64,000 nt of DNA from Nostoc sp. DedQUE12b (GTDB lineage: Bacteria; Cyanobacteriota; Cyanobacteriia; Cyanobacteriales; Nostocaceae), in assembly GCF_034530835.1 (NCBI RefSeq), contig NZ_JAVRCI010000020.1:11572-75571 (forward strand), given 5' to 3'. The notes beneath the pieces were generated by a model. It searched no databases. It was not told where the DNA came from and worked only from the letters and a program-made list of their open reading frames with translations. Position 1 is the stretch's first letter, and the number at the start of each line of letters is the position of its first letter. Shown one piece after another: positions 5,181 to 24,649 of this stretch. Made by a program: the position numbers and the translations under genes.

Positions 5181-5201
5181 GCCTACGGCGGGCTGCGCCT
5201 A
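5181..5201. repeat. 21-nt small dispersed repeat inserted in a HIP1 site
   Basis: GCGAT|GCCTACGGCGGGCTGCGCCTA|CGC; removing the 21 nt restores GCGATCGC. Confidence 0.8.
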
Positions 5202-5235
5202 CGCGAATTTTAAATAGTTTTTACAGGTTTTGCTC

Positions 5236-7787: not shown

Positions 7788-7901
7788 ACAAAAGGCAGGG
7801 GAGCGGGGGAGCAGAGGAGAAGTTGCAGTAAGTCTTTCCCCTCTGCCCCTCTCCCCCTCCGCCCCTCTGCCTTCTATACCCAATTCTCAATATATAAACT
7901 T

Positions 7902-8206: not shown

Positions 8207-8251
8207 TTTGTACTCTTCATCAAGTCTGATTTTGCTACAAGTATTAAGGTA

Positions 8252-8285
8252 AGAATTCAGGAGTCAGAATTCAGAATTCAGAATA
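8252..8285. repeat. Heptamer-type short tandem repeats (AGAATTC); similar tracts at 1804-1832, 3613-3635, 7795-7870 and 35038-35105
   Basis: agaattcaggagtcagaattcagaattcagaat, typical of intergenic repeats in heterocystous cyanobacteria. Confidence 0.7.
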
Positions 8286-8497
8286 GTTAAAGAATTAGGA
8301 GATAATTGGATACATAAATGTACTAATCATGCTGCATTCCTTTTCAATTATGACTTTTGAGTTCTGAATGCTGAATTATTACATTTGTAGTAAGCACTTT
8401 AGTGCTTAGATGAAAGTTAGAGCCACCCACTACGAACTTATCAAAATTAATTTGGTGAACTAAATACAAACTCTCGCTTCAGTCAATCACTAAAAAG

Positions 8498-9553
8498 ATG
8501 GAAACTATCAATACGGCTCTTTGTTCATCTGGTTTATCCGGCATGGTATTTCATGCGCCGTTTATTGATTTACATCCCGGATTTAAATTAGCTGGTTCTT
8601 GGGAAAGAAGCAAAAAGCTGATACAGGAAAATTATCCTGATGTTAAAAGCTATCCTTCTTTGGAAGCATTGCTAGCAGATGAGCAAGTAATCTTGGTGGT
8701 AGTAAATACACCCACTTATACCCATTACGATTATGCTAAACAGGCATTGCTTGCAGATAAGCATATAGTGGTAGAAAAAGCATTCACCACAACGGTAGCA
8801 GAAGCAGAACACCTCAAAGAATTGGCACACAAACAGGGAAAAAAATTATCTATATATCAAAACCGGAGGTGGGATAGTGATTTTCAAACAGTCAAAAAAA
8901 TTGTTCAAGCGGGCTTATTAGGTGATATTGTTGAAGCAGAATTTCAATTTCAAAAATATAAGCCAACCCTTAGTCATAAACAACATGTTGAAGTTCCCAG
9001 TCCGGGGGCAGGAACATTAAACAATTTAGGGCCGCACTTAATAGACCAAGCTTTGCATTTATTTGGAATGCCCAATGCTATTTTTGCAGATATCCGTATA
9101 ACTAGGCTGCGATCGCAGGTAGATGATTGTTTTGAGTTGATACTATACTACGACAAACTGCGCGTCAAATTAAAAGCAGGTTTCCTTGTACGTGAACCTG
9201 CACCTGCCTACATCATACATGGCACTCATGGTTCTTTTCTTAAAAGCAGAGCCGATAAACAAGAAGAGTATTTAGTGGCGGGTATGAAGCCTAACACACT
9301 TGATTGGTATACAGAACCGGAAAGTGAATATGGCTTGCTTCATACAGAAAAAGACACAAAAGTAATTCGGGAAAAAGTCAAAAGTTCACAGGGCAGTTAT
9401 TTAGATTATTACGATGCAGTATATAAATCTATTGTTAGTAATCAGCCAATTGCTGTTACTGCCGAAAACGGAATTAATGTAATGAAAATTATAGAAGCCG
9501 CTATGAAAAGCAGCAATGAGCAAAAAGTCATAACATTGCTTGAAGTGAGCTAA
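8498..9553 (+). CDS. Gfo/Idh/MocA family oxidoreductase (YdgJ/IolW-like)
   Basis: GLSGMVFHAP N-terminus, HIVVEKAF, YQNRRWDSDF, LGPHLIDQAL. Confidence 0.85.
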   Translation: METINTALCSSGLSGMVFHAPFIDLHPGFKLAGSWERSKKLIQENYPDVKSYPSLEALLADEQVILVVVNTPTYTHYDYAKQALLADKHIVVEKAFTTTVAEAEHLKELAHKQGKKLSIYQNRRWDSDFQTVKKIVQAGLLGDIVEAEFQFQKYKPTLSHKQHVEVPSPGAGTLNNLGPHLIDQALHLFGMPNAIFADIRITRLRSQVDDCFELILYYDKLRVKLKAGFLVREPAPAYIIHGTHGSFLKSRADKQEEYLVAGMKPNTLDWYTEPESEYGLLHTEKDTKVIREKVKSSQGSYLDYYDAVYKSIVSNQPIAVTAENGINVMKIIEAAMKSSNEQKVITLLEVS

Positions 9554-9663: not shown

Positions 9664-11277
9664 ATGCTAAAAACTATTTTTCCTAGCTTTTTTATTTTAT
9701 TTTTGGCAATTCCAGCAGTTTGGGCAGTACCTCCAGAAGACGATCCGAATGCAACAGATGCTAATCGGACTTTGCAGGGACAAGTCACTTCTGTTTCCCA
9801 GTTTTCTGATGTACAACCAACCGATTGGGCATTTGGTGCATTGCAATCGTTAGTCGAACGCTACGGTTGTATTGCAGGTTATCCCAATTCCACCTATCGC
9901 GGCAACCGTGCCTTAACCCGTTATGAGTTTGCCGCAGGTTTAAATGCTTGTTTGGATCGGATTAATGAGTTAATTGCCACAGCTACTAGCGATTTAGTTA
10001 ATAAGCAAGATTTGGCAGTGATGCAAAAGTTGCAGCAAGACTTTGCCGCAGAACTGACAACTCTGCGCGGACGAGTAGATACCTTAGAGGCACAGACAGC
10101 AACATTGGAGGCGCAGCAGTTTTCCACAACTACTAAGTTGAATGCTCAAATTATTACCGCTATTAGTGATACCTTTGGCGATCGAGTAGGTGGTGAAGAT
10201 GATGAATCCAATCTCTACTTTGCAAATCGGGGTCGTCTCAACTTTGAGAGCAGTTTTACGGGCAAAGATTTGTTGCGAGTCCGGCTGGAGTTTGGCAACT
10301 TTGCGAATTCCAATGGTGCAAGCCAAATTGCCGCAGCCACAGGCACAGGGATGACACGCCTGAATTTCGATTATGACAGCAACAATACACTTTTTGTCCC
10401 CCACATCCGTTATTACTTCCCAGTCAGTGAATCCCTAAACTTCGTTGTTGGGCCTACAGGCATTGGTTACACCGACATTTCAACTACCGTCACTCCTCCC
10501 ACAATTGCTGACGACGGCAATGGGGTTCCCTCACTTTTTGGATCGTACAGTCCCTTATTCCGGCGAGGTGGCGGCGGTGCAGCCGCTAACTGGAACATTA
10601 CCAAAGACTTGGTTCTCACCTTGGGCTATTTAGCAAGCACTCCCAATGTGCCATCGGCGAGCAACGGGTTGTTTGATGGTGGCTACAATGCCCTAGCGCA
10701 CTTAGCCTATTATGGTAAGCAAGGAGCGATCGGTGTTGCCTACTCTCATGGCTATAGTCCTGCTGGAGTACCCGATGTCGCAGCTGGGACGGGTAGCGTC
10801 TTGTCAAACGCTCCCTTTGGCAACAACATTGCTACTTCCAACGATATTGTCGGCACACAGGGATACTATCGCTTCTCCCCGAATTTCCAAGTTCACGCTT
10901 GGGGTGGATATATTTGGGCAAATGCCGAGAGTTCTGGTTTGAGTGATATTTCTAATGGTAGGGGTGGAACAGATTCTGTATTTGTGAACAATGGTGACAA
11001 TGCCAATGTCTGGTTTGGGGCGATTGGTGTGTCGTTTCCTGATGTGGGTGGTAGAGGTAATCTGCCAGGAATTCTCTTTGGTATACCACCCCATGTTTCT
11101 AACAGTGATGTCCGTCAAGAGCGAGACAATGCTTACCATATCGAAGCATTTTATCGTTATCGACTAAATGACAACATCTCAGTGACTCCTGGTTTTTGGG
11201 TGATTCTCAACCCGGAAAACGATAGCAGAAATGATACGCAGTATGTGGGTGTGCTTCGCACAACCTTCGATTTTTAA
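9664..11277 (+). CDS. oprB: Carbohydrate-selective porin with SLH domain
   Basis: SLH motif DVQPTDWAFGALQSLVERYGC, coiled coil, FSTTTKL, beta-barrel ending RTTFDF. Confidence 0.85.
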   Translation: MLKTIFPSFFILFLAIPAVWAVPPEDDPNATDANRTLQGQVTSVSQFSDVQPTDWAFGALQSLVERYGCIAGYPNSTYRGNRALTRYEFAAGLNACLDRINELIATATSDLVNKQDLAVMQKLQQDFAAELTTLRGRVDTLEAQTATLEAQQFSTTTKLNAQIITAISDTFGDRVGGEDDESNLYFANRGRLNFESSFTGKDLLRVRLEFGNFANSNGASQIAAATGTGMTRLNFDYDSNNTLFVPHIRYYFPVSESLNFVVGPTGIGYTDISTTVTPPTIADDGNGVPSLFGSYSPLFRRGGGGAAANWNITKDLVLTLGYLASTPNVPSASNGLFDGGYNALAHLAYYGKQGAIGVAYSHGYSPAGVPDVAAGTGSVLSNAPFGNNIATSNDIVGTQGYYRFSPNFQVHAWGGYIWANAESSGLSDISNGRGGTDSVFVNNGDNANVWFGAIGVSFPDVGGRGNLPGILFGIPPHVSNSDVRQERDNAYHIEAFYRYRLNDNISVTPGFWVILNPENDSRNDTQYVGVLRTTFDF

Positions 11278-11283
11278 AAAATC

Positions 11284-11330
11284 GGCGGGAATCTCATCCT
11301 TTCAAAGGGTCTTCGGGATAGTTTCCCGCC
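11284..11330 (+). terminator. Stem-loop after oprB, possible terminator
   Basis: GGCGGGAA...TTCCCGCC inverted repeat immediately after the stop codon. Confidence 0.45.
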
Positions 11331-11442
11331 GCCACAAGTCATTAGTCCTTAGCCTCTAGTCATTAGTACTAATAACTGGTAATTAATAGACTTCTTGGCA
11401 TTTGTCGGGGTAAAGGGGAAGGTGGGGCCCCCTCTGGGAATA

Positions 11443-11667
11443 AGCTACGGTGTACACACAAGTCGAAAAAAGCTTGATTTTCCATTGTTTTCTCGTTGAT
11501 CTCGTTCCCATGAAGAGCATGGGAATGCCTGATTTAGAGGCTCTGCCTCCAGTCAGATATTGAGTCTCTGACTCAATGAATGCATTCCCAGTCTCCGACT
11601 GGGAACGAGGAAAAACAGGAAAGTCTTATCAAGCTAGGTTTTTAGGACTTGTGTGTACACCGTAGCT
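11443..11667. mobile_element. MITE-like element with perfect 22-bp terminal inverted repeats
   Basis: AGCTACGGTGTACACACAAGTC (11443-11464) and GACTTGTGTGTACACCGTAGCT (11646-11667), enclosing a CTCGTTCCCA...TGGGAACGAG inverted element. Confidence 0.75.
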
Positions 11668-12020
11668 GGGGATAAGGGGCAGGGGAAAAGGGTAAAGAAA
11701 CTCAAAATCCTTTCCCTTTAACATGCACCCTTTTCCCTAAGAGTGCAAAAATATATTTTTGCAAGAGACTCCATGAGCTGCGCTCACAAGGAACAATGAA
11801 AATAATCTGGGAATGATTTTGCGTTGTTTCAGCCTCTATTTTTAAGCCAGGTCTAATGACCAATACCTTCGCCAAAAAAAGAGAATTAAGAGAAAGAGCT
11901 GATTAAGTCATACTCATATCCGGCTAATTAGTTATAATTCCCAAATCTATGTAGAAAGCCCAAAAACCCTCCCTCGTTATTTTTATTTTTCTCGGCTACC
12001 CCTATTTATTGAGTCGATAC

Positions 12021-13946
12021 TTACTCGTGATGATTGCTTTTAAGTTGACCATCTTCCATATAAATAATGCGGTCAGCAATATCTAAAATGCGGTTGTCGT
12101 GGGTAACAAGTAAAATGGTACAGTCTTGTTCTTTAGCGAGCTTCTGCATTAGTTCAACAACATCGCGCCCAGATTTTTTATCGAGTGCGGCAGTAGGTTC
12201 ATCAGCTAAGACAATTTTAGGATAACTCACTAAAGCACGAGCAATAGCTACCCGTTGTTTTTGCCCACCAGAAAGATTTTCGGGGTAGTAATTGAGACGC
12301 TCTGCTAAACCAACAGCCTCTAGCATGGTCATTGCTTTGCTGTTTATATCATTATTTAAATACTCTTTATGCAATTCCAATGACATACGCACATTTTCTT
12401 GAGCAGTTAAAAATGTCATCAGGTTATGCGCTTGAAAAATATAACCAATTTGGCGGCGTAATTTAGCTAACTGCTGTTTATTAGCTCCACAAATTTCCTG
12501 CCCCAAAATTTTCAAACTACCTTCTTGAGCAGAACGCAAACCGCCCATTAAAGTCAAGAGAGTAGTTTTACCTGAGCCGGAAGGTCCAGTCAGAATTACA
12601 ATTTCCCCCGCATAAATTTCTAAGTTAATGTTAAATAACACTTGTTTGCGTAATCCACCTGACCCAAAATAATGATTGAGGTTATGCACCGAAATCACAG
12701 GTTCACAAATAGGGAACGATAAATTAGTGATGACTGATTTTACTTCAGGAGTTTGGCTTATCGACGAAACTAGGGCAGTGAGTAACATTATAGTTCCGGC
12801 TCCTACAAATAAACCTGTTAGGCTAACTTCAAGTAATGCTCCAGAAATAGCCTGAGACAAAGGATCAAGAGCTACAGCCGCAAACATTGTTAGACCCATG
12901 ATTCTTCCCTGCATATTTGCAGCTGTATTCTGTTGCAGCCAAGTTATACCCAGTACAGTGACAGTTCCACCCCCTATGCCCATCAGTCCAATTATTCCTG
13001 ATATTATCCAAAGCTGCTGCACAAATCCTAGTGCTATTAGTCCTGCACCCAGACCATAAGACAACAAAATCAGGGGGGTTTTGGGACTCTTGACTGCACT
13101 AAGTTGACTGGCAACTAAGACTCCGATTAATGCACCTATACCGTAAGCTGCTTGCAGATAACCAAATGTTGTGGCGTTACTTTCAAACCGGACATTGACT
13201 AAGGCTGCAACACCGATGATGATTGGCCCTAACATGGCGAAATTAATCATCGCTAGGAGCAATAGGCTGATGCGAATGGGAGGCTGTGTCCAGGCATATT
13301 TTAAACCTAAAATAATTTCACCTATCAAAGCTGGTTCCTGTGTTTCAGTAGCAAGAGGTTGGCGACGACGAATCCGAACCAGGTAGATAAAGAAACTACC
13401 AAACGCAAATATGAGTGTATTGATAGCAAAAGCAATGGTTAACCCAAACGCACCAATTATAAAACCTGCACCAGCAGGACCGATGACTTCGGTGATCTGT
13501 TCACTACCCTGCATCCAAGCGTTTGCTTCTGCCAGTTGGGATTTTCTGACTAATTGAGGCAGTAGGGCAAGAATCGCTGGATATAAAATAGCTTCCAACA
13601 ATCCAAACAGAATAGCGATCGCAATCAAATATATCAGTCGAACAGCATCAAATACTAATAAAGCAGTAGCCAAGGCAATCAAAACAGTATTAATCGTCGC
13701 AGCAATGATGGCAACATTTCTGGTTGACAAGCGATCGCTAATTGCACCTCCTATTAACATAAACAATGCTCGTGGAATGGCAGCCGCCACTAATACAGTT
13801 CCAACAGCCAATCCTGAACCCATTTTTTGGAGTACCAGCCATGTCAACGAGACAAACCAAAATTGAGCAGCACTCAAAATCAGCGTTTGTCCTAACCATA
13901 GCCAGCGAAAGTTAGGAAAATATAACGGCGATCGCAGCATATACAT
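12021..13946 (-). CDS. MFS permease fused to a DevA-family ABC ATPase
   Basis: About 400 aa of hydrophobic MFS (GAISDRLS motif), then EPVISVHNLNHYFG, GPSGSGKT, LSGGQKQRVAIARAL, LADEPTAALD, LLVTHD, all in one open frame. Confidence 0.8.
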   Translation of the reverse strand: MYMLRSPLYFPNFRWLWLGQTLILSAAQFWFVSLTWLVLQKMGSGLAVGTVLVAAAIPRALFMLIGGAISDRLSTRNVAIIAATINTVLIALATALLVFDAVRLIYLIAIAILFGLLEAILYPAILALLPQLVRKSQLAEANAWMQGSEQITEVIGPAGAGFIIGAFGLTIAFAINTLIFAFGSFFIYLVRIRRRQPLATETQEPALIGEIILGLKYAWTQPPIRISLLLLAMINFAMLGPIIIGVAALVNVRFESNATTFGYLQAAYGIGALIGVLVASQLSAVKSPKTPLILLSYGLGAGLIALGFVQQLWIISGIIGLMGIGGGTVTVLGITWLQQNTAANMQGRIMGLTMFAAVALDPLSQAISGALLEVSLTGLFVGAGTIMLLTALVSSISQTPEVKSVITNLSFPICEPVISVHNLNHYFGSGGLRKQVLFNINLEIYAGEIVILTGPSGSGKTTLLTLMGGLRSAQEGSLKILGQEICGANKQQLAKLRRQIGYIFQAHNLMTFLTAQENVRMSLELHKEYLNNDINSKAMTMLEAVGLAERLNYYPENLSGGQKQRVAIARALVSYPKIVLADEPTAALDKKSGRDVVELMQKLAKEQDCTILLVTHDNRILDIADRIIYMEDGQLKSNHHE

Positions 13947-14047
13947 TTCACTACAGTAAATCTTTGCTCAAGTATCATTTCCCTGTTTTATTACTTTAGG
14001 GAGAGAAAAATAAATAATAGTTGGAAAAGCTTGAGGATAGAAGCAAA

Positions 14048-14779
14048 CTACACTTTATTCTCAAAATAATTGTTGTCTTGCTCATTCTTGTCAACATAAT
14101 TCTTGCGAAATATCTTCTCAGTCAAGAGATAAGGAATCGGCAATAAAAACCAGACATACTCCCACCAAGATTGATCTATAATAGCGACTGCTATTGTAAA
14201 TAATGAGAAAACAGGCTCTATCAAGATTATCCATCGCGTCAAAATAATAGTTTTACTATCTAGATCAGGAGTAATTAACCGATGCTTATGAGTCGCGTAA
14301 GTCCAGTTCGCAAATGATAGTAACCCAATCAGCGTAGTGTTTACACTGAAGCAGATTTTGACAATTGCATTTCCTGGAAAATAGATGACTAAGGTATCAG
14401 AATAAGGAATCAGAAACATACTCATCAGATAGAGTAAGTAGAGTGATATATGAATATCATCTGATTTTTTGTAATACCTAAATTGCTTAATATGATCAAG
14501 CCAATAGTAACCTACAATAACAAATGCGATTGCATAGCTGGTAAGTGGTTTTACTTGAGCTAGTAAAAATCTAAAAACTTCTGAATTTGTAGGCTGCTGA
14601 AGCTCTTCTGGAAAACCAAGAGTAAAGAAGCACTGTGCCATTGCCAGTGCGAAGATAATATCAGCTATTCTTCCAAGGCGAACAATAGAGCTATTTTGAG
14701 CAGAATTATTGTCTTGAGCTTCATTCATTAAACTATTTCTTATTGATTTTAGAGGATGTATAAAAAACTCCACCCACAA
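14048..14779 (-). CDS. TMEM175 (DUF1211) family channel protein
   Basis: RLGRIADIIFALAM, SYAIAFVIVGYYWLDHIKQF and LIPYS motifs; alternative start at ATG 14728. Confidence 0.75.
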   Translation of the reverse strand: MWVEFFIHPLKSIRNSLMNEAQDNNSAQNSSIVRLGRIADIIFALAMAQCFFTLGFPEELQQPTNSEVFRFLLAQVKPLTSYAIAFVIVGYYWLDHIKQFRYYKKSDDIHISLYLLYLMSMFLIPYSDTLVIYFPGNAIVKICFSVNTTLIGLLSFANWTYATHKHRLITPDLDSKTIILTRWIILIEPVFSLFTIAVAIIDQSWWEYVWFLLPIPYLLTEKIFRKNYVDKNEQDNNYFENKV

Positions 14780-14899
14780 GGAGATGAAGTTTTACCTAAT
14801 GGGGAATAAGGAAGAGTCACCAATGCCCAATGCCCCAAGTCGGCGGGGGAACTATCCCTCTCTTGGGGATGGAGAGGAATAGCCGACTTTCTATGAAGC

Positions 14900-15556
14900 T
14901 TACCCTATTTCTGCGAGCAGTTTACCCCATTTCTCGTAGAAATTAGCTTGTCGCTGTTGGATTAAGACTAACTGGAATTGCGAATAATCAGGATTACTCT
15001 GTAAGGCATTTATGAGATTCTCTTTACTTTCAGAATCCATAAAATCTAACAATGGCTGCCTAACGTCCAGAGCGCAATTCAAAGCCTCAGTCATCCGAGA
15101 AAACCAGATCGGCGAATAAGTTTTATAGTTTACAGCACGGATATCTTTCCTACAGTTCTGACTACCACACTTACATACCGCATAAGTTCTATCGTTAGAT
15201 TTGAAACATGCATCAAGCAAGGCATAATCTAATGTTATTTCCTCACCTTCAGCAATATTCCTTACGGCAATGGATACCGCATATCCAGTAATAAGAGTGT
15301 TAAAGTCACAGCTATGGTTTATATACTTGGCATTATTCCAATTCAAAACGACATTACCTTCCATATTCACATAAGCAAAAAAATCGATCATTTCCCTAAA
15401 ATTTACATCTAAAGAAGCAAACTTGTCTGGTGTAACCTCTATATCAAGAGGATCTTCATACACAACAATAGTCCCTTTGGGAATTGGTTCAGTGGCAAAA
15501 ATACCATATCCAATTTCTGAATTAACAAAGCGAACTTCAGTTGAATGATGTAGCAT
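14900..15556 (-). CDS. SET-domain protein (putative SAM-dependent methyltransferase) with post-SET cysteines
   Basis: GYGIFATEPIPKG, YINHSCDFN, EEITLDY, CKCGSQNCR. Confidence 0.88.
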   Translation of the reverse strand: MLHHSTEVRFVNSEIGYGIFATEPIPKGTIVVYEDPLDIEVTPDKFASLDVNFREMIDFFAYVNMEGNVVLNWNNAKYINHSCDFNTLITGYAVSIAVRNIAEGEEITLDYALLDACFKSNDRTYAVCKCGSQNCRKDIRAVNYKTYSPIWFSRMTEALNCALDVRQPLLDFMDSESKENLINALQSNPDYSQFQLVLIQQRQANFYEKWGKLLAEIG

Positions 15557-15674
15557 TATTCTTTAACCTTACTTTTGTAAAAACTTGGAATCGCAGCGGC
15601 ACTTTCAGCAACAGTTTCTATCCTTCAGAGGTTGTCTGAAAAGCATACTCTGTAGTTGGCTTTGGTCTTCATGG

Positions 15675-15974
15675 TCAGGTTGAGTGGCAAAAAGAAATAG
15701 AGAATAGGTGATTAATATCTTCGCCAAAATAGAGGTAAATGCCAATACGAAGATGATCTAGGCTATCAACATCAATTTGGTTGTTCCATAATTGTCTATA
15801 AGTATCTAGGATACCGTATAAAATATCTAGATTATCTGCACATAGGCCCTGCTGTGCTTCTGGTAATTTATATCAGGGAATAGTAGGACAAAAATGGTGA
15901 ACATAGTGATAACTTGCATTATGAAAGAAAAAATTAACGACTTTTCTTGAATAAAGTTTGTTTAGGTAATCATG
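15675..15974 (-). pseudogene. C-terminal remnant of a membrane fatty-acid desaturase (not in the ORF track)
   Basis: Minus-strand frame reads KVVNFFFHNASYHYVHHFCPTIP*YKLPEAQQGL. This is the third His box (HxxHH at 15894-15908) followed by P-x-I-P-W-Y-x-L-P, with TGG changed to TGA at 15873-15875. Confidence 0.75.
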
Positions 15975-16165
15975 AAAAGTCTACAGATGATAAGCCTGTA
16001 GGAGGTGTGATGCCACAGCCTAACGCACTGAAAATCTCTGATGGTGCGTTAAGACTAATGTCTATAACGCACCTTACCAGATAGATTCAAGCCAATGTAG
16101 ATCAGGTTTTTTTACTACTATCCCTAGCCAGTACTCAATTAATTTGACACCAGTTAAACACTCAG

Positions 16166-19100
16166 TTATTCAGCACTACTTAGCACAAAATCTACATATT
16201 GATGAGTAAACTGCTTCTCACATGGCGGACACCAGTGTAAATAAGTATCAACTTGGTCTGTATTGATATTCCTGAACATCGTATTAAATTGTTTTTCTAA
16301 CTCAGGTGATACCACTGATTTCAATAGTTTCATGCCCTTTTTATCTGTATTCCGAACATACTCTTCATACTTATCAACAAAAGTTCTGAGTGGCACAATC
16401 TCAACGTCCTTATTCAATTTCTGGAAGTAGCTAATTACATCAGACCAATTCAGTGGTTCTGGATTATAAAAAGTGTAGTTGTGTTTTCTCTCATTAATAG
16501 ATAGTAACGATGTAGAAACGATCGTCTTAGCCGCATATTCAACTGACATCAAATCGAAATCAGCATCCATATCAGGAATACAACCTATATGAGAAATGGC
16601 ACAGAGGAAATTCTCAAAGGCATCTTCATCGATAAAAAAGTCGTCGTCTATATTCTCGTAAGCCTTTTCTATCAAGGCAAATAGTTTGTTCAATGGGGTG
16701 TTTTGCTCGATATGCTTGACCCGCAGGGTATATAAATAGCCTAATCGGTAGTTGACCCACGGGTATCCCTGTTCTGCGAGGCGTAATACGATTTGCTCTG
16801 TCACATACTTGGTTTGTGCATATCCATTAACAAGACCAATGGGGATAGGTTGATTTGCGCAGTCTTCTAGCAAGGACGCGGCACAACTCGACACATTGTA
16901 AAGAGATTTAACCTTTCCGGCTAATGCGAAATCTGCAACTTCAATAGTGCCAATAACATTGGTATTTTTGATGATGTCGTATGGTAGATAGAAGTTATCT
17001 ACAGCCGCTACATGATATACGCTATCAATGTTTTGTGCTAATTCTTCATAGCGATCATTTTCTAGCCCAAATCGCTTCTTAGACATATCACCGATAATAA
17101 TTTGTACGCGATTCTCCCATCCTGGTAAGAAATGAACATCGAACTTTCGCGCTGTTTTTTTGATTCGTTGAAGACCTGCTTCTTCATTGGCTGCTCGAAC
17201 TAAACAAGCAATATTGAGATTAGTAGTGTCGAGCAGTTCTTTTAAAAAATAAGTACCGACAAAACCCGATGCTCCGGTAAGTAAGCAAGTATTGGTTTGA
17301 CGGCTCTGGCTTACACTAACTTCGTTGTCACGACGACGAAGAAGGTATTCTAAAGCATTTTCTATTTCTATATTTAGAGGTTGGCTGTGTGTCAGTCTAA
17401 CTTTCGACCCGCCTTCACCAGAGATGGCACGAACTATATCGTCAATCATCCCCAAGAAGGTATTCGCATAGAAAAAAGCTTCTGTAGGAATTTGACAACC
17501 TAGTTCCCCTTCAAGTGTGCTATGAATTTCAATGATTTTTAAAGAGTCGATTCCATAGAAAAAGATTGACTTCTCTACATCAAAATCAGCCATTCGTACC
17601 TGATATCTCTTAGTTAGAATCTGTATGAGGCTAGTAAAGACCTTGAGGTGCATTGGCCCCATAGATGTGATCCGTTCAAATGTCTTTTCAATATTCAACA
17701 TACTTACGTCTCCTTTTGATTGAGTTCTAGATTCTTCTTTAGGCCATTTAGCTAGAGCATCAAGATTGTTTTGGAGAAACTCTTGTTTGCACTGTTGTCT
17801 ACGGATTTTGCCGCTAGATGTTTTCGGGATTTGCATATGTCCTAAAAACACGAGTTGGCGTAAGGGCATCTCGAAGTTATCTCCCAAAGCGAGACAAATA
17901 GCTTCAGCCAGTTCCTCCAAATAACTAGCTCGACGCAGATTGATGACACCTGTTTTTGTTAATTCAGCAAAAATTACCAATTCCTCGCCAGCTTCACCTG
18001 GGACACTAAAAGCGGCGACACAACTGAAGCGAATATCAGGATGTGCCTGCTGCACACAAATCTCAATGTCTTGGGGGTAGTAATTCACACCATTGACGAT
18101 AATGATGTCTTTGATTCGGCCTGTAATGTATAGTTCGCCCTTCTCATCAATAAAGCCCAGATCACCGGTACGGAGGTAAGTCCGACTGTCATCTGGCAAA
18201 GAAACTAGGGTCTTGTCCGTGGCTTCTGGATTGTTGTAATAACCAGCCATGACGTTAGAACCAGTAGTCCAAATTTCTCCGACATGATTTGGGGATAATA
18301 CACAATTTTTATCAGGATCGACAATATAAATTCTTTGGTCTAGCCAAGGGTGTCCACAACCGACAAAAACCTTTTCTTTGCTGCTGTCGGTCGCTTCTTG
18401 GGCTATGTTGTACTGACCCAGTGCTGTCCAATCAACTGCCTTAAAAACTGGGTCTTGATCAACATATCCAGAAGATATGTATACTGTCGCCTCGGCCATG
18501 CCATAAGCAGGGAGGAACATATGAGGCTTGAATCCGTTTTCCGCAAACTTTTCACAGAAGTCCCGTATAGTTTCTGGATTGATGGGTTCGGCGGCGTTAA
18601 TTGCCATCCGCAACGAGGATAGATCGAGGGTCTTTTGATCGCTGGGCTGGATTTTATCAACACATAGTTGATAGGCGAAGTTAGGTGCACCTGTATATGC
18701 AGCACGGTATTTACTAATGGCACGTAGCCATTGTATTGGTTGGGAGGCAAAGGTTGCTGGGGCGAGTAGCACACAATGACCGCCACTATAAAGGCTGTGC
18801 AGAAGATGAGCGACTAAACCGAGGTCGTGATAGTGTGGCAACCAAGATACTGAAGTAGAATCGGCATCGGCATGACTCATGGCTACAATCATCTCTAGGT
18901 TATTGAGACAATTTTTATGGCTAATCATCACACCTTTTGGTAGTGAGGTCGAACCAGAAGTGAACTGCAAGAAAGCGATCACCGAGCCATCGATCTCTGG
19001 AAGAGGTAACTTCTGAGAGTTCAATGCCTCTTTAGTCATGTCTGTTGGTACATAAATCAGATCCTTAGGCCAGTTTTCTTCTTTGCTTAAGACATCATAA

Positions 19101-19480
19101 AAAGCTTGTTGATGGCTAGCAGGAAGTAGTATTGCTGAGGCTTTTGTGGCAACTACGATATCTGCAATTTTCTTGTTGGAACGATTGTGTTTTGGGATAT
19201 GGATAGGTGCAGGCAATACCCCAGCATAAAGGCATCCGAAGAATGCAACTATAAATTCGATTCCAGGTGGATAAAGCAAAATGGCATTCTGTGATCGCAG
19301 TCCCTGAGATAACAACCCTTGGGCTATATCAATAGCCTGAGAGTACATATCTTTGTAGGTAATATAGCTATTCTCTGCACCATGAGAATCGAGCATTGTA
19401 TAAGCCCTACGGTCAGGCTGTACCTCAGTCCAGTAAGTAAGAACCTCAGCCAAGTTATTAAAGCCTTGAGACTTGATCAT
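16166..19480 (-). CDS. Fatty acyl-AMP ligase - acyl carrier protein - thioester reductase (FAAL-ACP-R)
   Basis: FLQFTSGSTSLPKGV, WLPHYHDLGL, PAYGMAEATV, YLRTGDLGF, IPKTSSGKIRR (FAAL); YGIDSLKI (phosphopantetheine Ser); LLTGASGFVG and YAQTK (extended SDR R domain). Confidence 0.9.
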   Translation of the reverse strand: MIKSQGFNNLAEVLTYWTEVQPDRRAYTMLDSHGAENSYITYKDMYSQAIDIAQGLLSQGLRSQNAILLYPPGIEFIVAFFGCLYAGVLPAPIHIPKHNRSNKKIADIVVATKASAILLPASHQQAFYDVLSKEENWPKDLIYVPTDMTKEALNSQKLPLPEIDGSVIAFLQFTSGSTSLPKGVMISHKNCLNNLEMIVAMSHADADSTSVSWLPHYHDLGLVAHLLHSLYSGGHCVLLAPATFASQPIQWLRAISKYRAAYTGAPNFAYQLCVDKIQPSDQKTLDLSSLRMAINAAEPINPETIRDFCEKFAENGFKPHMFLPAYGMAEATVYISSGYVDQDPVFKAVDWTALGQYNIAQEATDSSKEKVFVGCGHPWLDQRIYIVDPDKNCVLSPNHVGEIWTTGSNVMAGYYNNPEATDKTLVSLPDDSRTYLRTGDLGFIDEKGELYITGRIKDIIIVNGVNYYPQDIEICVQQAHPDIRFSCVAAFSVPGEAGEELVIFAELTKTGVINLRRASYLEELAEAICLALGDNFEMPLRQLVFLGHMQIPKTSSGKIRRQQCKQEFLQNNLDALAKWPKEESRTQSKGDVSMLNIEKTFERITSMGPMHLKVFTSLIQILTKRYQVRMADFDVEKSIFFYGIDSLKIIEIHSTLEGELGCQIPTEAFFYANTFLGMIDDIVRAISGEGGSKVRLTHSQPLNIEIENALEYLLRRRDNEVSVSQSRQTNTCLLTGASGFVGTYFLKELLDTTNLNIACLVRAANEEAGLQRIKKTARKFDVHFLPGWENRVQIIIGDMSKKRFGLENDRYEELAQNIDSVYHVAAVDNFYLPYDIIKNTNVIGTIEVADFALAGKVKSLYNVSSCAASLLEDCANQPIPIGLVNGYAQTKYVTEQIVLRLAEQGYPWVNYRLGYLYTLRVKHIEQNTPLNKLFALIEKAYENIDDDFFIDEDAFENFLCAISHIGCIPDMDADFDLMSVEYAAKTIVSTSLLSINERKHNYTFYNPEPLNWSDVISYFQKLNKDVEIVPLRTFVDKYEEYVRNTDKKGMKLLKSVVSPELEKQFNTMFRNINTDQVDTYLHWCPPCEKQFTHQYVDFVLSSAE
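17701..17716 (-). promoter_or_regulatory. Internal Shine-Dalgarno sequence and in-frame ATG (Met594) at the start of the ACP-R half
   Basis: Minus strand reads AAAGGAG-acgtaagt-ATG with an 8-nt spacer. Confidence 0.45.
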
Positions 19481-20017
19481 CTAACAAAATCCTCAATCAA
19501 ATTTGTTGGATATTGCAAAAGTCATATATTGACTAAATGACAAACTTGTTAACCACAAATCCTGAATAATTATGGTGCAAAGGTGCAGGGGCTTTAGGGA
19601 AAGAACTATTTAATATATGAACAACCCAGTTGAATGTTCCGTTTCACCTACACTGCTACACATTCACACCCAACGTTCAAAAGGGTTTTGGCTTATTTTA
19701 GTGCCATTTTTTCATGAACTGACATCACTTCTTACTTGAATTTTGGACGAATTAATCTTCGTTAAAAAATTGCGTGGATTCCTTAATGTCCATAATTCTA
19801 ATGATTTTTGCAATTCGTTAGCTTAATGCAGTATATCGAAGTAACAATAATACTTAAAAGTAAAAATTAAGTTAAGCAACATTTACTTTTAAGTTAACTT
19901 TCGATAAACAAAGTAAGGGGAAAACCACAATCAGGCGATTCCCCTGCACATTATCGATCAGAAGTTGCATACTTTCTCATATCATTTCACTTTAGAGTTA
20001 ATACATTTAGGCAAGCT

Positions 20018-20066
20018 CTCACGGCAGTGGTGTTTTGGTAAAACCTCAAAACACCACTGCCGTGAG
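20018..20066. other. Perfect 20-bp inverted repeat (9-nt loop) between the Coq4-like gene and FAAL-ACP-R
   Basis: CTCACGGCAGTGGTGTTTTG-gtaaaacct-CAAAACACCACTGCCGTGAG. Confidence 0.8.
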
Positions 20067-20183
20067 GCTGGAGAAGTGAACTGTATCAGTATCTTCGTGA
20101 AATATTATTAGTTCATTTTCTGGATTTTACTTCTACAGTAGACCATGCCAGTTTCCATAGTACACTTATCTATTTGAGGTTCC

Positions 20184-20936
20184 TCAAGTCAGCACAGGTT
20201 CAATCTGGAAAATGGGTTGGATATTCAGTTCTGCCTGCCATACAGCAACTGGTTTTTCCCAGGCTTCTTCCCATTTTTGAGCAATCAATGGTTTAGCTGT
20301 TTGCCCCATTTCCCATCCCTTGGCGATCGCACTTAGAAGTAGAGATAGTTCGTCTGGTTGCAATAATGTAGTACTGATCAGGCTATTAGCGATGAGCATA
20401 CTTGCAAGGGGTAGCTGAAACTGCGCTAGATAGAAAGCTTGCAAACCAATTTCACCGATTTCACTAGTGTCGAATCCGGTAATAATGTGCCAGATATCGT
20501 GGGTTTGTTGCCAGCGATTTTCTACATAGCTGGTATCTGAGTCAATTTTGACTTTTGCCGTTATTGTCTGCAAACCTGCCTCTTTCAAACTACTGGCATA
20601 GGTATAGCCTAAGGAATCTTGGGGATATTCCAACAAGGCTTTGAGATCGTGGGGAGGAGCCATATAGCGTTCAGCAATAATTGAGGCGACTTCTGGCTTG
20701 GCTTTCATAGACTCAACAGTGAGCTGGAAGGCTCGATTGTCAACTAGGCTAGTACTTAACTCCTCAACTAAATCTAGATTTCCTCTATCGTCAAGAAGTA
20801 CTTTCAAAAATGCTTTTGTAGTTTTAAAAATACGAAAGAAGTTTTTTACACTCGTCCATATTGAGCCATTGGCTTGTGGCTTCCCGCTCTGATTACTTGT
20901 GACTGATGATAAATACTTGTAATTCATAGACTCCAT
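20184..20936 (-). CDS. Coq4 family protein
   Basis: YPQDSLGYTY and QTHDIWHIITGFDTSEIGEIGLQAF (HDxxH...E metal motif of Coq4). Confidence 0.85.
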   Translation of the reverse strand: MESMNYKYLSSVTSNQSGKPQANGSIWTSVKNFFRIFKTTKAFLKVLLDDRGNLDLVEELSTSLVDNRAFQLTVESMKAKPEVASIIAERYMAPPHDLKALLEYPQDSLGYTYASSLKEAGLQTITAKVKIDSDTSYVENRWQQTHDIWHIITGFDTSEIGEIGLQAFYLAQFQLPLASMLIANSLISTTLLQPDELSLLLSAIAKGWEMGQTAKPLIAQKWEEAWEKPVAVWQAELNIQPIFQIEPVLT

Positions 20937-20972
20937 TGGATTATCTTTAATGAGTGGAATTATCGTAATATA

Positions 20973-21011
20973 TGAACAATGTTCACATATCTATAATATG
21001 AACATTGTTCA
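20973..21011. promoter_or_regulatory. Twin TetR-type operators TGAACAWTGTTCA
   Basis: TGAACAATGTTCA at 20973-20985 and TGAACATTGTTCA at 20999-21011, between the divergent starts of the Coq4-like gene and TetR. Confidence 0.8.
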
Positions 21012-21036
21012 GATTATGCAAGGGTAATTTTAAATA

Positions 21037-21669
21037 ATGGCAGATAATTTTCCAAAGCCTGTAAGAACGAGACGACAGCCAAAGCAGGCACGTAGCCAGG
21101 AGCGCGTCAACTGCATCCTTGGTGTTGCCGAACAGTTATTTATTGAACTGGGGTATGACCAGACTACAACAAGAGCGATCGCATCTCGTGCCGACATTCC
21201 TATAGGATCGCTCTATCAGTTTTTTCCTGATAAAAAAGCGATCCTTAAAGCTTGGGCAAATCAGTATTTTGAGCAAGAATATCAACTGTTTGTACAACTT
21301 CACTCCGAACTAGCCGAAGTACCAATCGAAGTCTATGTTGAGCGCATGGTTGGCGCTTTTGACCAGTTTGCAACCGATAATCCTGGCTATCGAGCTGTAC
21401 TAGAACAATTGATCGATTTGATGATAGCAAGCGATATTAGTACCCTAGATAATTACGACTCACAAATTCTCAAAGAACTTGCCCATTTTCTGATACAGCG
21501 AAATCCTTCTTTAGATATTGCAATGAGTGAATTAATTGCTACAACTGTTGTGAAAGTTGTTAACGAGATGCTATGGCTTTCGCTTACCCGTGATCAAGTC
21601 TTTCGCAAACAAATTTTAGCAGAGACAAAAATATTAATTACAGCGTACTTACAAACTTACCAAATTTAA
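21037..21669 (+). CDS. TetR/AcrR family transcriptional regulator
   Basis: RRQPKQARSQERV...TTTRAIASRADIPIGSLYQFFPDKKAI helix-turn-helix. Confidence 0.92.
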   Translation: MADNFPKPVRTRRQPKQARSQERVNCILGVAEQLFIELGYDQTTTRAIASRADIPIGSLYQFFPDKKAILKAWANQYFEQEYQLFVQLHSELAEVPIEVYVERMVGAFDQFATDNPGYRAVLEQLIDLMIASDISTLDNYDSQILKELAHFLIQRNPSLDIAMSELIATTVVKVVNEMLWLSLTRDQVFRKQILAETKILITAYLQTYQI

Positions 21670-22092
21670 CACAGAGATAAAATTGCTCCTAATTACAATA
21701 ATATTTGCTATCGCTCTTTTATCACTCTCTTCAGATAAAAAGCTAATAATCCTTGCCACACAAGACTTTAATTTCAAAGAGATTATTTTAGCCGTAATGT
21801 TAAAAAATAAAGTTCTAAACCTAGTTTCTGCCTCTTGTTGAAAAGATAACTGAGATTTTTATCTGTCTAAAGTGATGAAAGAGCAATGTATTATATAGAT
21901 CCCCAGTAGAGACGTAAAAACGTATAACAGGAGTAAGAAGGTAGAAAGTATAATTCTTACTATTCCTAGCATTAACGCTTTCAAAATGTCCTATCATATA
22001 TCCCTCCTGACATCTTGTTTTCTATCTAAGTTATAACCATCCCTTGGATTTTTGATGCTGATGGGTTGGTTTATTATTAGATTTTAATACAA

Positions 22093-23355
22093 TTAAGAAT
22101 CTGTAAATTTTTTGAAAGCTAGGCTGACATTGTGACCACCAAAACCAAAGGAATTAGAAATAGCTAAATCTATCTTCTGTTTTCGACTTTGGTGTGGAAC
22201 ATAATCCAAATCACATGCTGGATCAGGAGAATCTAAATTGATGGTAGGAGGAATTTCATCTTTTGCAACTGTTAATGCTGTGGCGACTGCTTCAATACCT
22301 CCAGAACCGCCCAAAAGGTGGCCAGTCATGGATTTTGGCGAACTAATACTAATATTATAAGCGTGTTGTCCTAAGGCTTTTTTGATTGCTAAGGTTTCAT
22401 TAACATCATTGGCAGGCGTACTAGTACCATGAGCATTAATGTAGCTGACTTGATTCACGGATAAACCAGCATCTTTGATTGCTAGTTCTATAGCTCTAGC
22501 AGCTCCTATACCTCCAGGAATGGGAGATGTCATGTGGTAAGCATCACAGGTCATCCCATAGCCAACGATTTCTGCATATATGTTAGCTCCACGGCTTTTG
22601 GCATGTTCTAGTTCTTCTAGGAACAGAATGCCAGCTCCTTCCCCCATGACAAATCCATCGCGGTCATAGTTAAAAGGACGAGAAGCGCAAGTTGGTTCTT
22701 CGTTACGAGTTGATAGAGCTTTGGCAGCAGCAAACCCAGCAACTAATAAAGGGGTAATGGGTGCTTCTGTACCACCGCAGATCATAGCTTGAGCATAACC
22801 CTGTTGAATTAAACGAAAAGCTTCTCCTATAGCATTGCTCCCCGCAGCACAGGCGGTGACTGTACAGGAGTTAGGGCCTTTTGCTCCTGTATGAATTGCT
22901 ATTAATCCAGCAGCCATATTGGCAATAAACATTGGTATCAAAAAAGGACTACATCGGTCGGGGCCTTTGGTGAGATAAATTTCTTGTTGTTTTTCTAAAA
23001 CATTCATGCCTCCACAACCATTACCGATGATTGCCCCAACTAAAGGGGCATTTAATTCAGTGATTGTGAATTTAGCATCTGCGATCGCTTGTAGGCTAGC
23101 ACACACTGCAAAGTAAGCATAGCGATCCATACGTTTAACTTCCTTGCGCTCTAAATAATCACATGGATCAAAGCCTTTGACCTCTGCTGCAATCTGACAG
23201 TCGTGTTTTGAGGCATCAAAACACCTAATAGGTGCGACACCACTACGGCCTTGCATTAGCCCCTGCCAATATTCTGCTACAGTGTTTCCTATGGGGGTAA
23301 TTGCTCCTAAACCTGTAATTACTACACGTTTTAACTGCAAGTTTTGCATAATCAA
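22093..23355 (-). CDS. fabF: Beta-ketoacyl-ACP synthase II, stand-alone copy
   Basis: RVVITGLGAITPIG, TACAAG (catalytic Cys), INAHGTST, GHLLGG, SNSFGFGGHN; likely ATG at 23349. Confidence 0.92.
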   Translation of the reverse strand: MIMQNLQLKRVVITGLGAITPIGNTVAEYWQGLMQGRSGVAPIRCFDASKHDCQIAAEVKGFDPCDYLERKEVKRMDRYAYFAVCASLQAIADAKFTITELNAPLVGAIIGNGCGGMNVLEKQQEIYLTKGPDRCSPFLIPMFIANMAAGLIAIHTGAKGPNSCTVTACAAGSNAIGEAFRLIQQGYAQAMICGGTEAPITPLLVAGFAAAKALSTRNEEPTCASRPFNYDRDGFVMGEGAGILFLEELEHAKSRGANIYAEIVGYGMTCDAYHMTSPIPGGIGAARAIELAIKDAGLSVNQVSYINAHGTSTPANDVNETLAIKKALGQHAYNISISSPKSMTGHLLGGSGGIEAVATALTVAKDEIPPTINLDSPDPACDLDYVPHQSRKQKIDLAISNSFGFGGHNVSLAFKKFTDS

Positions 23356-23629
23356 GTCTTATTTGTAGATTGTTGTAAATCTCATCAACTGTGCGGGAAA
23401 ATAACTAAAGTAAGAGCGTGAACTCAAATTCGCACTGGTAAGTTCAGTAGTTTTTTGGTTTTAGTACTTTTCATCTTTCATTAACTGCCTGTAAAAGCTA
23501 TCGATAATGAAACTATCACAATTTAATCCAGAGATAATTTATTTTTTCCATAAGGTAAGGTTAAATTTAAAGATCCAAAACTATTTAGTAAATAACCATC
23601 TTTTCATTCTTCGATAAAATAATTTTGCA

Positions 23630-23901
23630 ATGAAGTCTATTGAAGATAGCAGAATTTATCTTAAACGATTGCAGCATTGCTTCTCTAAATCCAAAAAAGC
23701 TGCTAAAAACAGGGCTAAGTTTAGAAACAAATTATCTCGTCAACACCTCAAGGTCAGTCGGCAACGCAAAGAATTTGCTGTAAAGACAGCAAGGTGCGTA
23801 GTAAAAGTAAGTCGAGTCGCAAAAAGAGGAAGCCCAAAGAGTGATCTTTGGAATTCCCTACGCTCATTTGATACTCCAAATCAGTGGTGGGAGGATGTCA
23901 A
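23630..23901 (+). mobile_element. tnpB: Internally deleted IS200/IS605-family element: TnpB fragment plus right end
   Basis: LKRLQHCFSKSKKAAKNRAKFRNKLSRQHLKVSRQRKEFAVKTARCVV is a TnpB segment; the element ends in GTGGGAGGATGTCAA (TCAA 23898-23901). Confidence 0.75.
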
Positions 23902-24473
23902 TTTTGCATATTCCGCTTCATTTGTTCTAACTCATCCTGAGTTTCCCAGCTACGAAACTTCTCTTCTAAGTCATCAAACCCACTAGAAAAATTGCTAGTT
24001 TGATTCGACCAACCACTGGTTTCAAAACGCTGCTGGGTTTGGGCTTTAGCACGGGCTGTCTGTGCTTCGGCGGCTTTAGCTTGCACTTCTTGTCGCCGTT
24101 GCTGAATTTTTTTCAGTAGTTCTTGAGATTGGTTAATGCGTTCTTTCAACCCTTGCATGTGTCCCCAGCGCTGATTTCCTTCGCGCAACAGAGCTGCTTC
24201 TCGCTCACCCGCCGCCGCCGCCAAATCCTCTCTATTAGCGTTTTTGGCTTTTTGAATGCGGATATGCCAACGCTGAATTTCTTGAGCAGTGGAGAGAATT
24301 TCTTCTTGCGATCGCTTCTCTTGTAATTTTAAATCTGCGATTAACTTTAATGTGTCTTCTTCTTGCTCACGCAGCTGTTCTAGCAGCGCCTCTAACTCCA
24401 AATGTGGATTGTTACGCAAGAATTCTTCTAAACGGTTTTCTAGAAACCGACTCAAATCATCAAATAATCCCAC
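23898..24473 (-). CDS. TIGR04376 family coiled-coil protein (PspA/IM30-like)
   Basis: MGLFDDLSRFLENRLEEFLRNNPHLEL N-terminus, long heptad helices. Confidence 0.8.
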   Translation of the reverse strand: MGLFDDLSRFLENRLEEFLRNNPHLELEALLEQLREQEEDTLKLIADLKLQEKRSQEEILSTAQEIQRWHIRIQKAKNANREDLAAAAGEREAALLREGNQRWGHMQGLKERINQSQELLKKIQQRRQEVQAKAAEAQTARAKAQTQQRFETSGWSNQTSNFSSGFDDLEEKFRSWETQDELEQMKRNMQN

Positions 24474-24649
24474 TGCTAGAACTCCAGAGATCGGGTGCGT
24501 GACTATTTTATTGTAGTGGGCGGAATGTAAATTTTAATCTTTCCCATTAGGTAAACTTCTGGCTGTTAGTTAGATTTCAAAGTTGGGAAGAATGTATTTG
24601 GTGAAACTACGCAAATAACCCTGACTTACGAAATAAGGCTTTAATCAGT

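Follow-up and report, generated by a model that had tools for sequence, protein, structure and literature searches.

Carboxylic acid reductases (CARs), such as Nocardia iowensis Car and Mycobacterium marinum CAR/FadD9, join an adenylation, a carrier and a thioester reductase domain within about 1100-1170 residues and use an in-cis phosphopantetheine arm to reduce free acids to aldehydes. The same layout is found in FAAL-ACP-R, a protein composed, in this order, of a fatty acyl-AMP ligase (FAAL), an acyl carrier protein (ACP) domain and a thioester reductase (R), which forms the centre of a gene island in a window of 64,000 nucleotides (the whole stretch analysed) from the cyanobacterium Nostoc sp. 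DedQUE12b. To judge from its sequence, FAAL-ACP-R would carry out the same reduction as CARs; its adenylating half, however, is a FAAL and not a CAR A-domain, and it sits in a conserved island with pumps, a SET-domain protein and a TMEM175-like membrane protein. The myxobacterial enzyme ElbD of ether-lipid biosynthesis, an acyl ligase-ACP-reductase-acyltransferase, also activates, tethers and reduces a fatty acid outside the logic of polyketide synthases (PKS) and non-ribosomal peptide synthetases (NRPS), but it carries an extra acyltransferase domain, feeds membrane ether lipids and has no efflux, SET or TMEM175 partners. In jamABC and the bacterial polyyne clusters, the chain that membrane di-iron enzymes modify is tethered to a carrier protein, onto which a FAAL has loaded it. 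The original prediction for this locus invoked jamABC, an analogy that holds as general logic but not for the di-iron enzymes of the island, DesA and DesB: JamB-type identity (delta-9-like, HRRHH/HNNHH) was rejected, as their His boxes differ and they have no BLAST similarity to jam-like desaturases such as the pair of locus L096. Furthermore, release in the island would be reductive, whereas jamABC and polyyne clusters use PKS extension or a thioesterase, and no intact desaturase is left in the window. For transport, the nearest systems are the heterocyst glycolipid exporter DevBCA-HgdD (TolC) and MacAB-TolC, with which the island shares a DevA-family ATPase, DevB-/DevC-like genes flanking it in relatives, and a predicted lipid export over both membranes; it differs in that an MFS_3 permease is joined to the ATPase (to DevB in Crocosphaera) and in that DevB and DevC are not at the locus. 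The fatty-amine branch of the tambjamine pathway (TamA, adenylation-ACP; TamT; TamH, transaminase-thioester reductase; PMC9594044) likewise holds a fatty acid on a carrier, dehydrogenates it and reduces it to an aldehyde, before making an amine lipid. Unlike this branch, the island has its reductase fused to FAAL-ACP and no transaminase, and its link to amines comes only from neighbouring polyamine, saccharopine-dehydrogenase-like, SET and GNAT genes.

We propose that a rare island, horizontally mobile and TetR-controlled, is present in the window as a reduced copy and would make a reduced lipid from a fatty acid for export, a reading to which we give a probability of about 60% from the comparisons below. 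The list of open reading frames and the Pfam scan bear out the layout first described, seven intact genes and one desaturase remnant, with all island genes on the minus strand except TetR. The check that the original prediction had itself put forward, co-occurrence in unrelated genomes, is positive, since the same genes stand together in other genera and orders. This recurrence, assessed on about 20 gene contexts, indicates that the grouping is more than chance and that the genes form a conserved evolutionary unit; by these comparisons the cluster of the window is a real one. DNA alignment places the window collinear with locus L093 in two blocks, one running from TetR to FAAL-ACP-R and the other covering TMEM175 and the fusion gene MFS-DevA, while the position of DesA and DesB in L093 is occupied in the window by a 3' remnant of DesA plus SET. 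The window thus holds a trimmed island of the L093 type.

The gene orders of the relatives, in which > and < give the direction of transcription, show how variable the island is. In L093 (87% identity for the whole enzyme, 90% for residues 600-1104) the order is <TetR Coq4> FAAL-ACP-R> DesA> DesB> TMEM175> MFS-DevA> DevB> DevC>, and in Aliinostoc and Nostoc CMAA1605 (83%) it is FabF> TMEM175> <TetR FAAL-ACP-R> DesA> DesB> MFS-DevA>, with <TetR<DevB<DevC upstream. Genome G419 has <DevA<DevC<DevB<TetR FAAL-ACP> ACP-R> DesA> DesB> DesB'> SET> GNAT> MFS-DevA> <TMEM175, and Crocosphaera chwakensis CCY0110, which belongs to another order, has arginine decarboxylase> DS-like> FAAL-ACP> ACP-R> DesA> DesB> SET> TMEM175> MFS-DevB fusion> DevC> DevA>. 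These last two are the fullest versions of the island, and in them the set that had been singled out as the tightest core (FAAL-ACP-R, desaturase, SET, TMEM175 and MFS) does appear as one co-directional operon. More distant or smaller arrangements are those of L100 (62% for the whole enzyme, 61% for residues 600-1104; <MFP <TetR SET> TMEM175> FAAL-ACP-R> AdoMet decarboxylase> aminopropyltransferase> <MFS <Coq4 TetR>, where MFP is a membrane fusion protein and MFS the major facilitator superfamily permease), L096 (FAAL-ACP-R> MFS> SET>), L103 (FAAL-ACP-R> [IS] SET> DesA> ... ABC> <TMEM175, IS being an insertion sequence) and the desaturase-less L113 (FAAL-ACP-R> SET> MFS>). As the original prediction had supposed, the cluster matches no characterised pathway in the searchable literature, and full-text searches combining FAAL and reductase, TMEM175, bacterial SET, MFS-DevA fusion, or polyamine and thioester reductase found no description of it; one FAAL paper lists fusions to aminoadipate-reductase-like domains as uncharacterised. 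SET, TMEM175 and the MFS-DevA/DevB fusions are without precedent in such clusters.

FAAL-ACP-R itself (16166..19480, minus strand, 1104 residues) is matched by the Pfam families AMP-binding, DIP2-like C-domain, PP-binding and NAD_binding_4, with 215 bits for AMP-binding and 37.7 bits for PF23024 against a cutoff of 27. Its motifs are intact, namely TSGST at 174, PKTSSGK at 552, GIDSL at 643, which contains the phosphopantetheine serine of the carrier (Ser645), TGASGFVG at 735 and YAQTK at 887, the last two being the TGxxGxxG and YxxxK of the reductase. When its first 580 residues are compared with the PDB, solved FAALs come at E = 1e-117 to 1e-55 (7R7E-G, a PKS loading FAAL; Legionella 3KXW; FadD23; FadD32; FadD28; E. 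coli 3PBK), whereas CoA ligases come at E = 1e-32 or worse. The curated NCBIfam FAAL cutoff is not reached (best model PRK05850, 395 bits against 775), which suggests a divergent subfamily. Membership of the CAR family was considered and rejected, because PDB entry 5MSO aligns only to R-domain residues 726-865 (E = 1e-17); with an adenylating half of FAAL type and a CAR that matches the reductase part only, the enzyme can be described as CAR-like in its working but FAAL-built. The best PDB match of the R domain is the myxalamid reductase MxaA. A search of residues 600-1104 against 5.8 billion proteins delimits an orthogroup of about 32 proteins at E <= 1e-101, after which the next match falls to 1e-27. 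An ortholog of the R domain occurs in 2 of 401 cyanobacterial species genomes, this one and G419, and a full-length ortholog in none of 24 genomes of the same genus. On these sequence grounds the orthogroup is distinct, rare and sharply bounded. The ratio of non-synonymous to synonymous substitution rates (dN/dS, here and below a simple pairwise estimate) is 0.11-0.15 for FAAL-ACP-R. In the proposed pathway, a free long-chain fatty acid would be adenylated by the FAAL and loaded in cis onto the carrier domain, tailored by DesA and DesB in the complete islands, and released with NAD(P)H as an aldehyde, which may be further reduced to an alcohol. If this prediction is right, the enzyme would by itself, and in compact form, convert fatty acids to aldehydes and could serve as a biocatalyst.

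The export step of the proposal is built on the fusion gene (12021..13946, minus strand, two places downstream of SET), which encodes 641 residues with an MFS_3 permease (Pfam MFS_1/MFS_3, residues 6-418) joined in frame to a DevA-family ABC ATPase (ABC_tran, residues 438-586; NCBIfam DevA TIGR02982, 374.9 bits against a cutoff of 295.8). The fusion is a single open reading frame in L013, L014, L093 and G419, and its dN/dS is 0.12-0.18. In Nostocales MFS_3 is fused to DevA, and in Crocosphaera chwakensis (L104 11507-14101) to DevB, the membrane fusion protein. That one permease is fused to two different pump subunits suggests that it works together with the tripartite pump, and the alternative fusions point to an undescribed machine in which a proton-driven carrier is coupled to a MacB-type pump; we found no description of such a hybrid exporter in the literature. 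The exporter named in the original prediction is present as a fusion, but the machine appears to be in two parts, MFS plus DevBCA, of which DevB and DevC are missing from the locus. Where L093 has DevB and DevC after the fusion gene, the window has MITE-like repeats (MITE, miniature inverted-repeat transposable element). DevB and DevC stand beside the island in L093, L098, L103, L104 and G419, and a second type of TetR travels with DevBCA. The closest DevBC copies in this genome belong to a complete TetR-DevB-DevC-DevA module (contig C10:79887-84285) that is 74-84% identical to the cluster-linked ones. Since MacB-type pumps, in the accepted view, take their substrate from the periplasmic side, two export stages can be surmised. 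The MFS-DevA protein would form the first stage and energise export, its MFS part taking the product over the inner membrane; a DevBC(A)-TolC pump would then expel it across the outer membrane.

Efflux genes lie beside the enzyme in every context examined (L013, L093, L096, L098, L100, L097, L102, L103, L104, L108, L015, G419, L113 and one 55%-identical ortholog), usually of the MFS_3 and/or DevBCA/MacB type, and TetR is a usual companion. Cyanobacterial orthologs have MFS_3 and/or a MacB/DevBCA-type pump, those of the Chitinibacteraceae a small multidrug resistance (SMR) protein plus TolC-MFP-ABC-FtsX, the ortholog of L108, within an NRPS cluster, an MFS plus a MacB-type set, and that of a metagenome-assembled genome of the Methylococcaceae an ABC exporter plus AcrB. 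It could be argued from this that the island is a detoxification or resistance module, in which TetR would sense a toxic carboxylic or fatty acid, FAAL-ACP-R would turn it by reduction into an aldehyde or alcohol that does less harm, and the product would be expelled by the pumps. Efflux pumps are indeed the only near-universal partners, joined in most contexts by TetR; copies lie on a conjugative element (L102) and among transposases, the island is frequently gained and lost, and at its edges in the window stand mobile-element remnants. At the left edge these are two adjacent MITE-like repeats of about 223 bp (palindromic, 11444-11666) and about 192 bp (11666-11858), with 148 blastn matches in the same genome, many of them 92-100% identical and on many contigs; at the right edge it is a fragment of IS605 OrfB (TnpB; 23630..23986, plus strand; Pfam OrfB_IS605 E = 9e-7, below the gathering score). 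We nevertheless consider detoxification improbable, because the tailoring enzymes found in the island family (two or three di-iron enzymes, SET, polyamine enzymes and a FabF paralog) are what a biosynthetic cluster typically contains, an acid generally becomes more reactive when it is turned into its aldehyde, and an in-cis carrier domain is a costly route to such an end.

The regulatory part of the proposal concerns the TetR-family gene (21037..21669, plus strand; Pfam TetR_N and TetR_C_15), whose product shares 78-82% identity with its counterparts in L013 and L093 (dN/dS 0.15-0.23). In the divergent gap between TetR and Coq4 (20973..21011) lie two perfect palindromes, TGAACAATGTTCA and TGAACATTGTTCA, whose starts are 26 bp apart and which are putative TetR operators. 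The pair is found at identical spacing beside TetR in L013/L014 and L093/L095 and is conserved in three lineages; in Aliinostoc and Nostoc CMAA1605 it faces FAAL-ACP-R directly. This supports control by TetR of the Coq4/FAAL-ACP-R side, which would be repressed through the palindromes until a lipid ligand binds. No copies of the palindromes were found upstream of FAAL-ACP-R, FabF or SET, Rfam gave no RNA elements across 11000-24600, and promoter and terminator scans returned sites no more numerous than in shuffled sequence.

The two remaining genes of the core, SET and TMEM175, would be dedicated, co-inherited partners without an assigned chemical step. The SET-domain protein (14900..15556, minus strand, 218 residues; Pfam SET 56.6 bits) is a methyltransferase of a cluster-specific type with a C-terminal helical extension of about 75 residues. 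It keeps the GxG, NHSC and DY residues and the post-SET CxCG..NCRK; the invariant residues G16, G18, N80, H81 and Y111 are retained, and C130 is nearly invariant. Position 74 is Asn in the window and Asp in nearly all relatives. In Foldseek comparisons its structure model matches the SET domains of ASH1L and MLL with probability 1.00; the models made for SET and TMEM175 are moderately confident (predicted local distance difference test, pLDDT, 69 and 73) and confirm folds without informing on substrates. The subfamily comprises 27 clusters among the 5.8 billion proteins, and at 47% identity or more an ortholog of FAAL-ACP-R adjoins nine out of nine cluster-type SET genes with readable context. 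SET genes at 42% identity or less are not beside FAAL-ACP-R, that of L105 (42%) lying in an unrelated neighbourhood, and the SETs retrieved when metagenomes were scanned with the SET alignment were for the most part distant (30-39% identity) and unlinked to FAAL genes, L113 being the only informative context. By these linkage counts the cluster-type SET is specific to the FAAL-ACP-R island. The enzyme can do without SET, which is absent from the otherwise complete islands L093 and L013. The functions of bacterial SET domains are largely unknown, and a small subfamily tied nine times out of nine to one lipid-reducing enzyme makes such a function testable.

The original prediction had considered methylation of the fatty-acid product, which we do not retain because a nitrogen-free lipid is an implausible SET substrate. 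All characterised SET domains methylate protein lysines, and to our knowledge no SET domain acts on a small molecule. SET, and GNAT in relatives, may accordingly regulate or mark a protein of the cluster, such as a transporter or the FAAL domain, by modifying its lysines, and leave the lipid untouched. The fold and the catalytic residues, which match histone-type SETs, are in line with this, as are the GNATs of G419 and L102, since GNATs are established regulators of adenylating enzymes, whose catalytic lysine they acetylate; it would also explain the minimal set of FAAL-ACP-R, SET and MFS without any amine-forming enzyme. We hold this explanation as possible but doubtful: it leaves the polyamine enzymes, the saccharopine-dehydrogenase-like partner and the SMR pumps unexplained, its target lysine is hypothetical, and L093 and L013 do without SET.

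These unexplained partners lead to another, tentative hypothesis, a pathway for cationic amine lipids, in which the aldehyde from the R domain would be coupled with an amine or polyamine, SET would N-methylate the resulting N-alkyl (poly)amine, MFS, SMR and DevBCA would export it, and TMEM175 would conduct or buffer cations or protect the producer. The alkyl-amine that SET would methylate resembles a lysine side chain. In L100 an AdoMet decarboxylase and an aminopropyltransferase lie between FAAL-ACP-R and MFS/Coq4/TetR; in Crocosphaera an arginine decarboxylase and a 1,9-bis(guanidino)-5-aza-nonane synthase end 53 bp before FAAL-ACP; GNAT acetyltransferases occur in G419 and L102; and in three Chitinibacteraceae species a saccharopine-dehydrogenase-like gene lies 15-21 bp upstream of FAAL-ACP-R, with a Qac-like SMR directly after it. 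The established chemistry of these families fits amines: primary alkyl amines are the substrates of SET domains, of deoxyhypusine-synthase-type enzymes and of aminopropyltransferases; saccharopine and carboxynorspermidine dehydrogenases couple carbonyls and amines reductively; and SMR pumps export quaternary ammonium compounds and spermidine. On the other hand, no transaminase or reductive aminase is present in any cyanobacterial version, the minimal FAAL-ACP-R/SET/MFS set included, and it is for this lack of an amine-forming enzyme that we keep the cationic-lipid hypothesis well below even odds. In addition, methylation of a small molecule by a SET domain would be unprecedented, the polyamine genes of Crocosphaera may be housekeeping homospermidine genes that are neighbours by chance, the SMR and GNAT matches are below their family cutoffs, and there is no polyamine gene in the island of the window. 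The full form of the idea, in which N-alkylated and N-methylated (poly)amines are the exported products of the island family, SET methylates the alkyl-amine, TMEM175 is a dedicated partner and the MFS-DevA/MFS-DevB fusions are a new hybrid two-stage lipid exporter, must be regarded as speculative and unlikely. Were the amine link to hold, it would mean natural cationic lipids of a new class, perhaps surfactants with antimicrobial action, as well as the first SET domain with a small-molecule substrate and the first physiological context for a bacterial TMEM175.

To return to the reading that we favour, the reduction and export of a lipid by a reduced island, the state of this copy has to be weighed. 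The desaturase remnant (15675..15980, minus strand; Pfam FA_desaturase E = 4e-9) consists of the last ~100 codons of the membrane desaturase DesA with an in-frame TGA. Its minus-strand reading is ...FFFHNASYHYVHHFCPTIP, the TGA, then YKLPEAQQGL..., and the last His box with its tail (...FFFHNASYHYVHHFCPTIP, the TGA, then YKLPEAQQGLCADNLDILYGILDTYRQLW...) lies between the tridomain enzyme and SET. The DNA of the remnant is 78% identical to the 3' end of the intact DesA of Aliinostoc (L013 14312-14456), and DesB is wholly missing from the window. Blastn against the genome did not bear out dispersed repeats in the DesA gap (15557-16165); the only repetitive gap is that at 11444-11858. In the relatives, DesA has the His boxes HExxH/HHxxHH/HNGGYHxxHH, its nearest curated family being the guanitoxin arginine hydroxylase GntB, far below cutoff, and DesB is of the front-end QIEHH type. 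The desaturation step of the original prediction falls for this genome, which cannot desaturate with both di-iron enzymes deleted; an untailored chain would be processed instead. The other genes are under purifying selection and thus maintained, with a dN/dS of 0.11-0.23 for FAAL-ACP-R, MFS-DevA, TMEM175, Coq4, TetR and FabF, and from these values this copy is probably still functional for reduction and export.

Several observations weigh against the proposed reading. This copy has lost DesA, DesB, DevB and DevC, and comparison of the loci indicates that the island is dispensable and erodes repeatedly: in Tolypothrix (L016) it is pseudogenised, its FAAL being broken and joined to a SET tail and its DevB and DevC broken as well, at the G419 locus L098 has kept only FAAL-ACP-R and MFS, and in G201 (L109/L110) the island is deleted except for TMEM175 and an ATPase remnant. 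The palindromes lie about 1.5 kb upstream of the start of FAAL-ACP-R, with none in the 700-bp gap between Coq4 and FAAL-ACP-R. MxaA, the best match of the R domain, makes an alcohol by four-electron reduction, and both an aldehyde and an alcohol are possible as the product; either of them, if plain, would give an amine methylase such as SET no target. The SET of the window also seems to be under relaxed constraint. Its pairwise dN/dS is 0.81 between the window and L096 and 0.45 between the window and L103, against 0.25 between L096 and L103, and the three-taxon estimate from these values gives a dN/dS near 1 on the window branch, almost neutral evolution, which suggests that parts of this copy may no longer function.

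These losses, with MITEs in the place of DevB and DevC, the near-neutral SET branch and the presence of every stage of erosion in relatives (L016, L098, L103 and G201), could also mean that the copy is a decaying relic without its ancestral product, whose intact frames were only recently released from selection. We think this unlikely. Seven genes are free of stops, one of them 3.3 kb long, six of the seven show the low dN/dS values given above, and all invariant residues of SET are retained. A desaturase-less arrangement of FAAL-ACP-R, SET and MFS exists independently in L113, and the genome retains, outside the island, the DevBCA and TetR copies that come nearest to the cluster-linked ones. 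Within one genus, one and the same locus can be seen in full (G419), reduced (L098 and L103) and deleted (G201) form. As the island is reduced here, its product would better be sought in Crocosphaera chwakensis CCY0110 or in G419.

The TMEM175-like membrane protein (14048..14728, minus strand; Pfam TMEM175 55.7 bits against a cutoff of 25) was correctly recognised as a gene in the original prediction, but its start is most likely the ATG at 14728, which gives 226 residues, and not the TTG at 14779, since homologs start at MNEAQD. The cluster type forms a subfamily of 45 cluster representatives. In line with the six-helix fold of the family, the top 14 Foldseek matches of the AlphaFold2 (AF2) model (mean pLDDT 73) in the PDB are all TMEM175, although weak (E ~0.01, TM-scores of 0.4-0.5). 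Set against the signature RxxxFSD of the first transmembrane helix of TMEM175, the protein has RLGRIAD, in which Arg and Asp are kept and IA stands in place of FS. The gene is linked to FAAL-ACP-R in L013, L014, L093, L100, L103, L104, G419 and L016, and the linkage holds for cluster-type TMEM175 at 64% identity or more; the Thermocoleostomius TMEM175 (51% identity) is not in such a cluster, which limits the linkage to closer relatives. Its dN/dS, within 0.11-0.23, indicates purifying selection. Structures of bacterial TMEM175 exist without a known physiological role, and the cluster type offers a defined genetic context for them.

Membership of Coq4, TetR and FabF in the cluster, which had been put forward as less certain, is recurrent but optional: Coq4 together with TetR is found in the window, L093 and L100, and FabF in the window, L013/L014 and L016. 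The Coq4-family protein (20184..20936, minus strand, 250 residues; Pfam Coq4 90.5 bits) has the metal motif HDIWH...E and matches PDB entries 3MSQ (E = 1e-39) and 6E12 (Alr8543; E = 1e-29). With TetR it forms an optional module, accompanied by MFS_3 also in L093 and L100, and no Coq4 remnant was found in the gap between TetR and FAAL-ACP-R of Aliinostoc. The KAS II (FabF) paralog (22093..23355, minus strand; NCBIfam fabF TIGR03150, 628 against a cutoff of 493.75) has an intact Cys-His-His triad (ACAAG at 168, HGTST at 309, GHLLG at 345) and stands at a matching position in L013, L014 and L016. A housekeeping acpP-fabF pair on contig C9 (72% identity) shows the FabF of the island to be an extra paralog, which may supply a special chain length or be a self-resistance copy of a target, for which the platensimycin cluster offers a precedent. 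Coq4, TetR and FabF are under purifying selection, with dN/dS within 0.11-0.23. Cyanobacteria make plastoquinone and not ubiquinone, and their Coq4-like proteins may, as a rule, be part of acyl-chain pathways. A Coq4 paralog of the same genome (36% identical, C115:3815-9366) follows genes that, read by eye from their translations, are acyl-CoA-ligase-like, for a thiamine diphosphate (ThDP) enzyme and KAS III-like.

Three further neighbourhoods deserve mention. On a 233-kb ENA contig (L102), a conjugative element (TraU, TraG, TraI) carries a 50%-identical FAAL-ACP-R together with a GNAT and a pump of the MacB type. Chitiniphilus purpureus (L097) and two Chitinolyticbacter species (L196, L197), three of the 56 genomes of their family, share a nine-gene set at 57-82% identity in the order saccharopine-dehydrogenase-like, FAAL-ACP-R, Qac-like SMR, DUF2147, TolC, MFP, ABC, FtsX and TetR. 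In L096, a jamABC-like set (4602-9039; FAAL, desaturase, ACP and a desaturase with HRRHH/HNNHH) lies just upstream of FAAL-ACP-R/MFS/SET, with transposase fragments between them.

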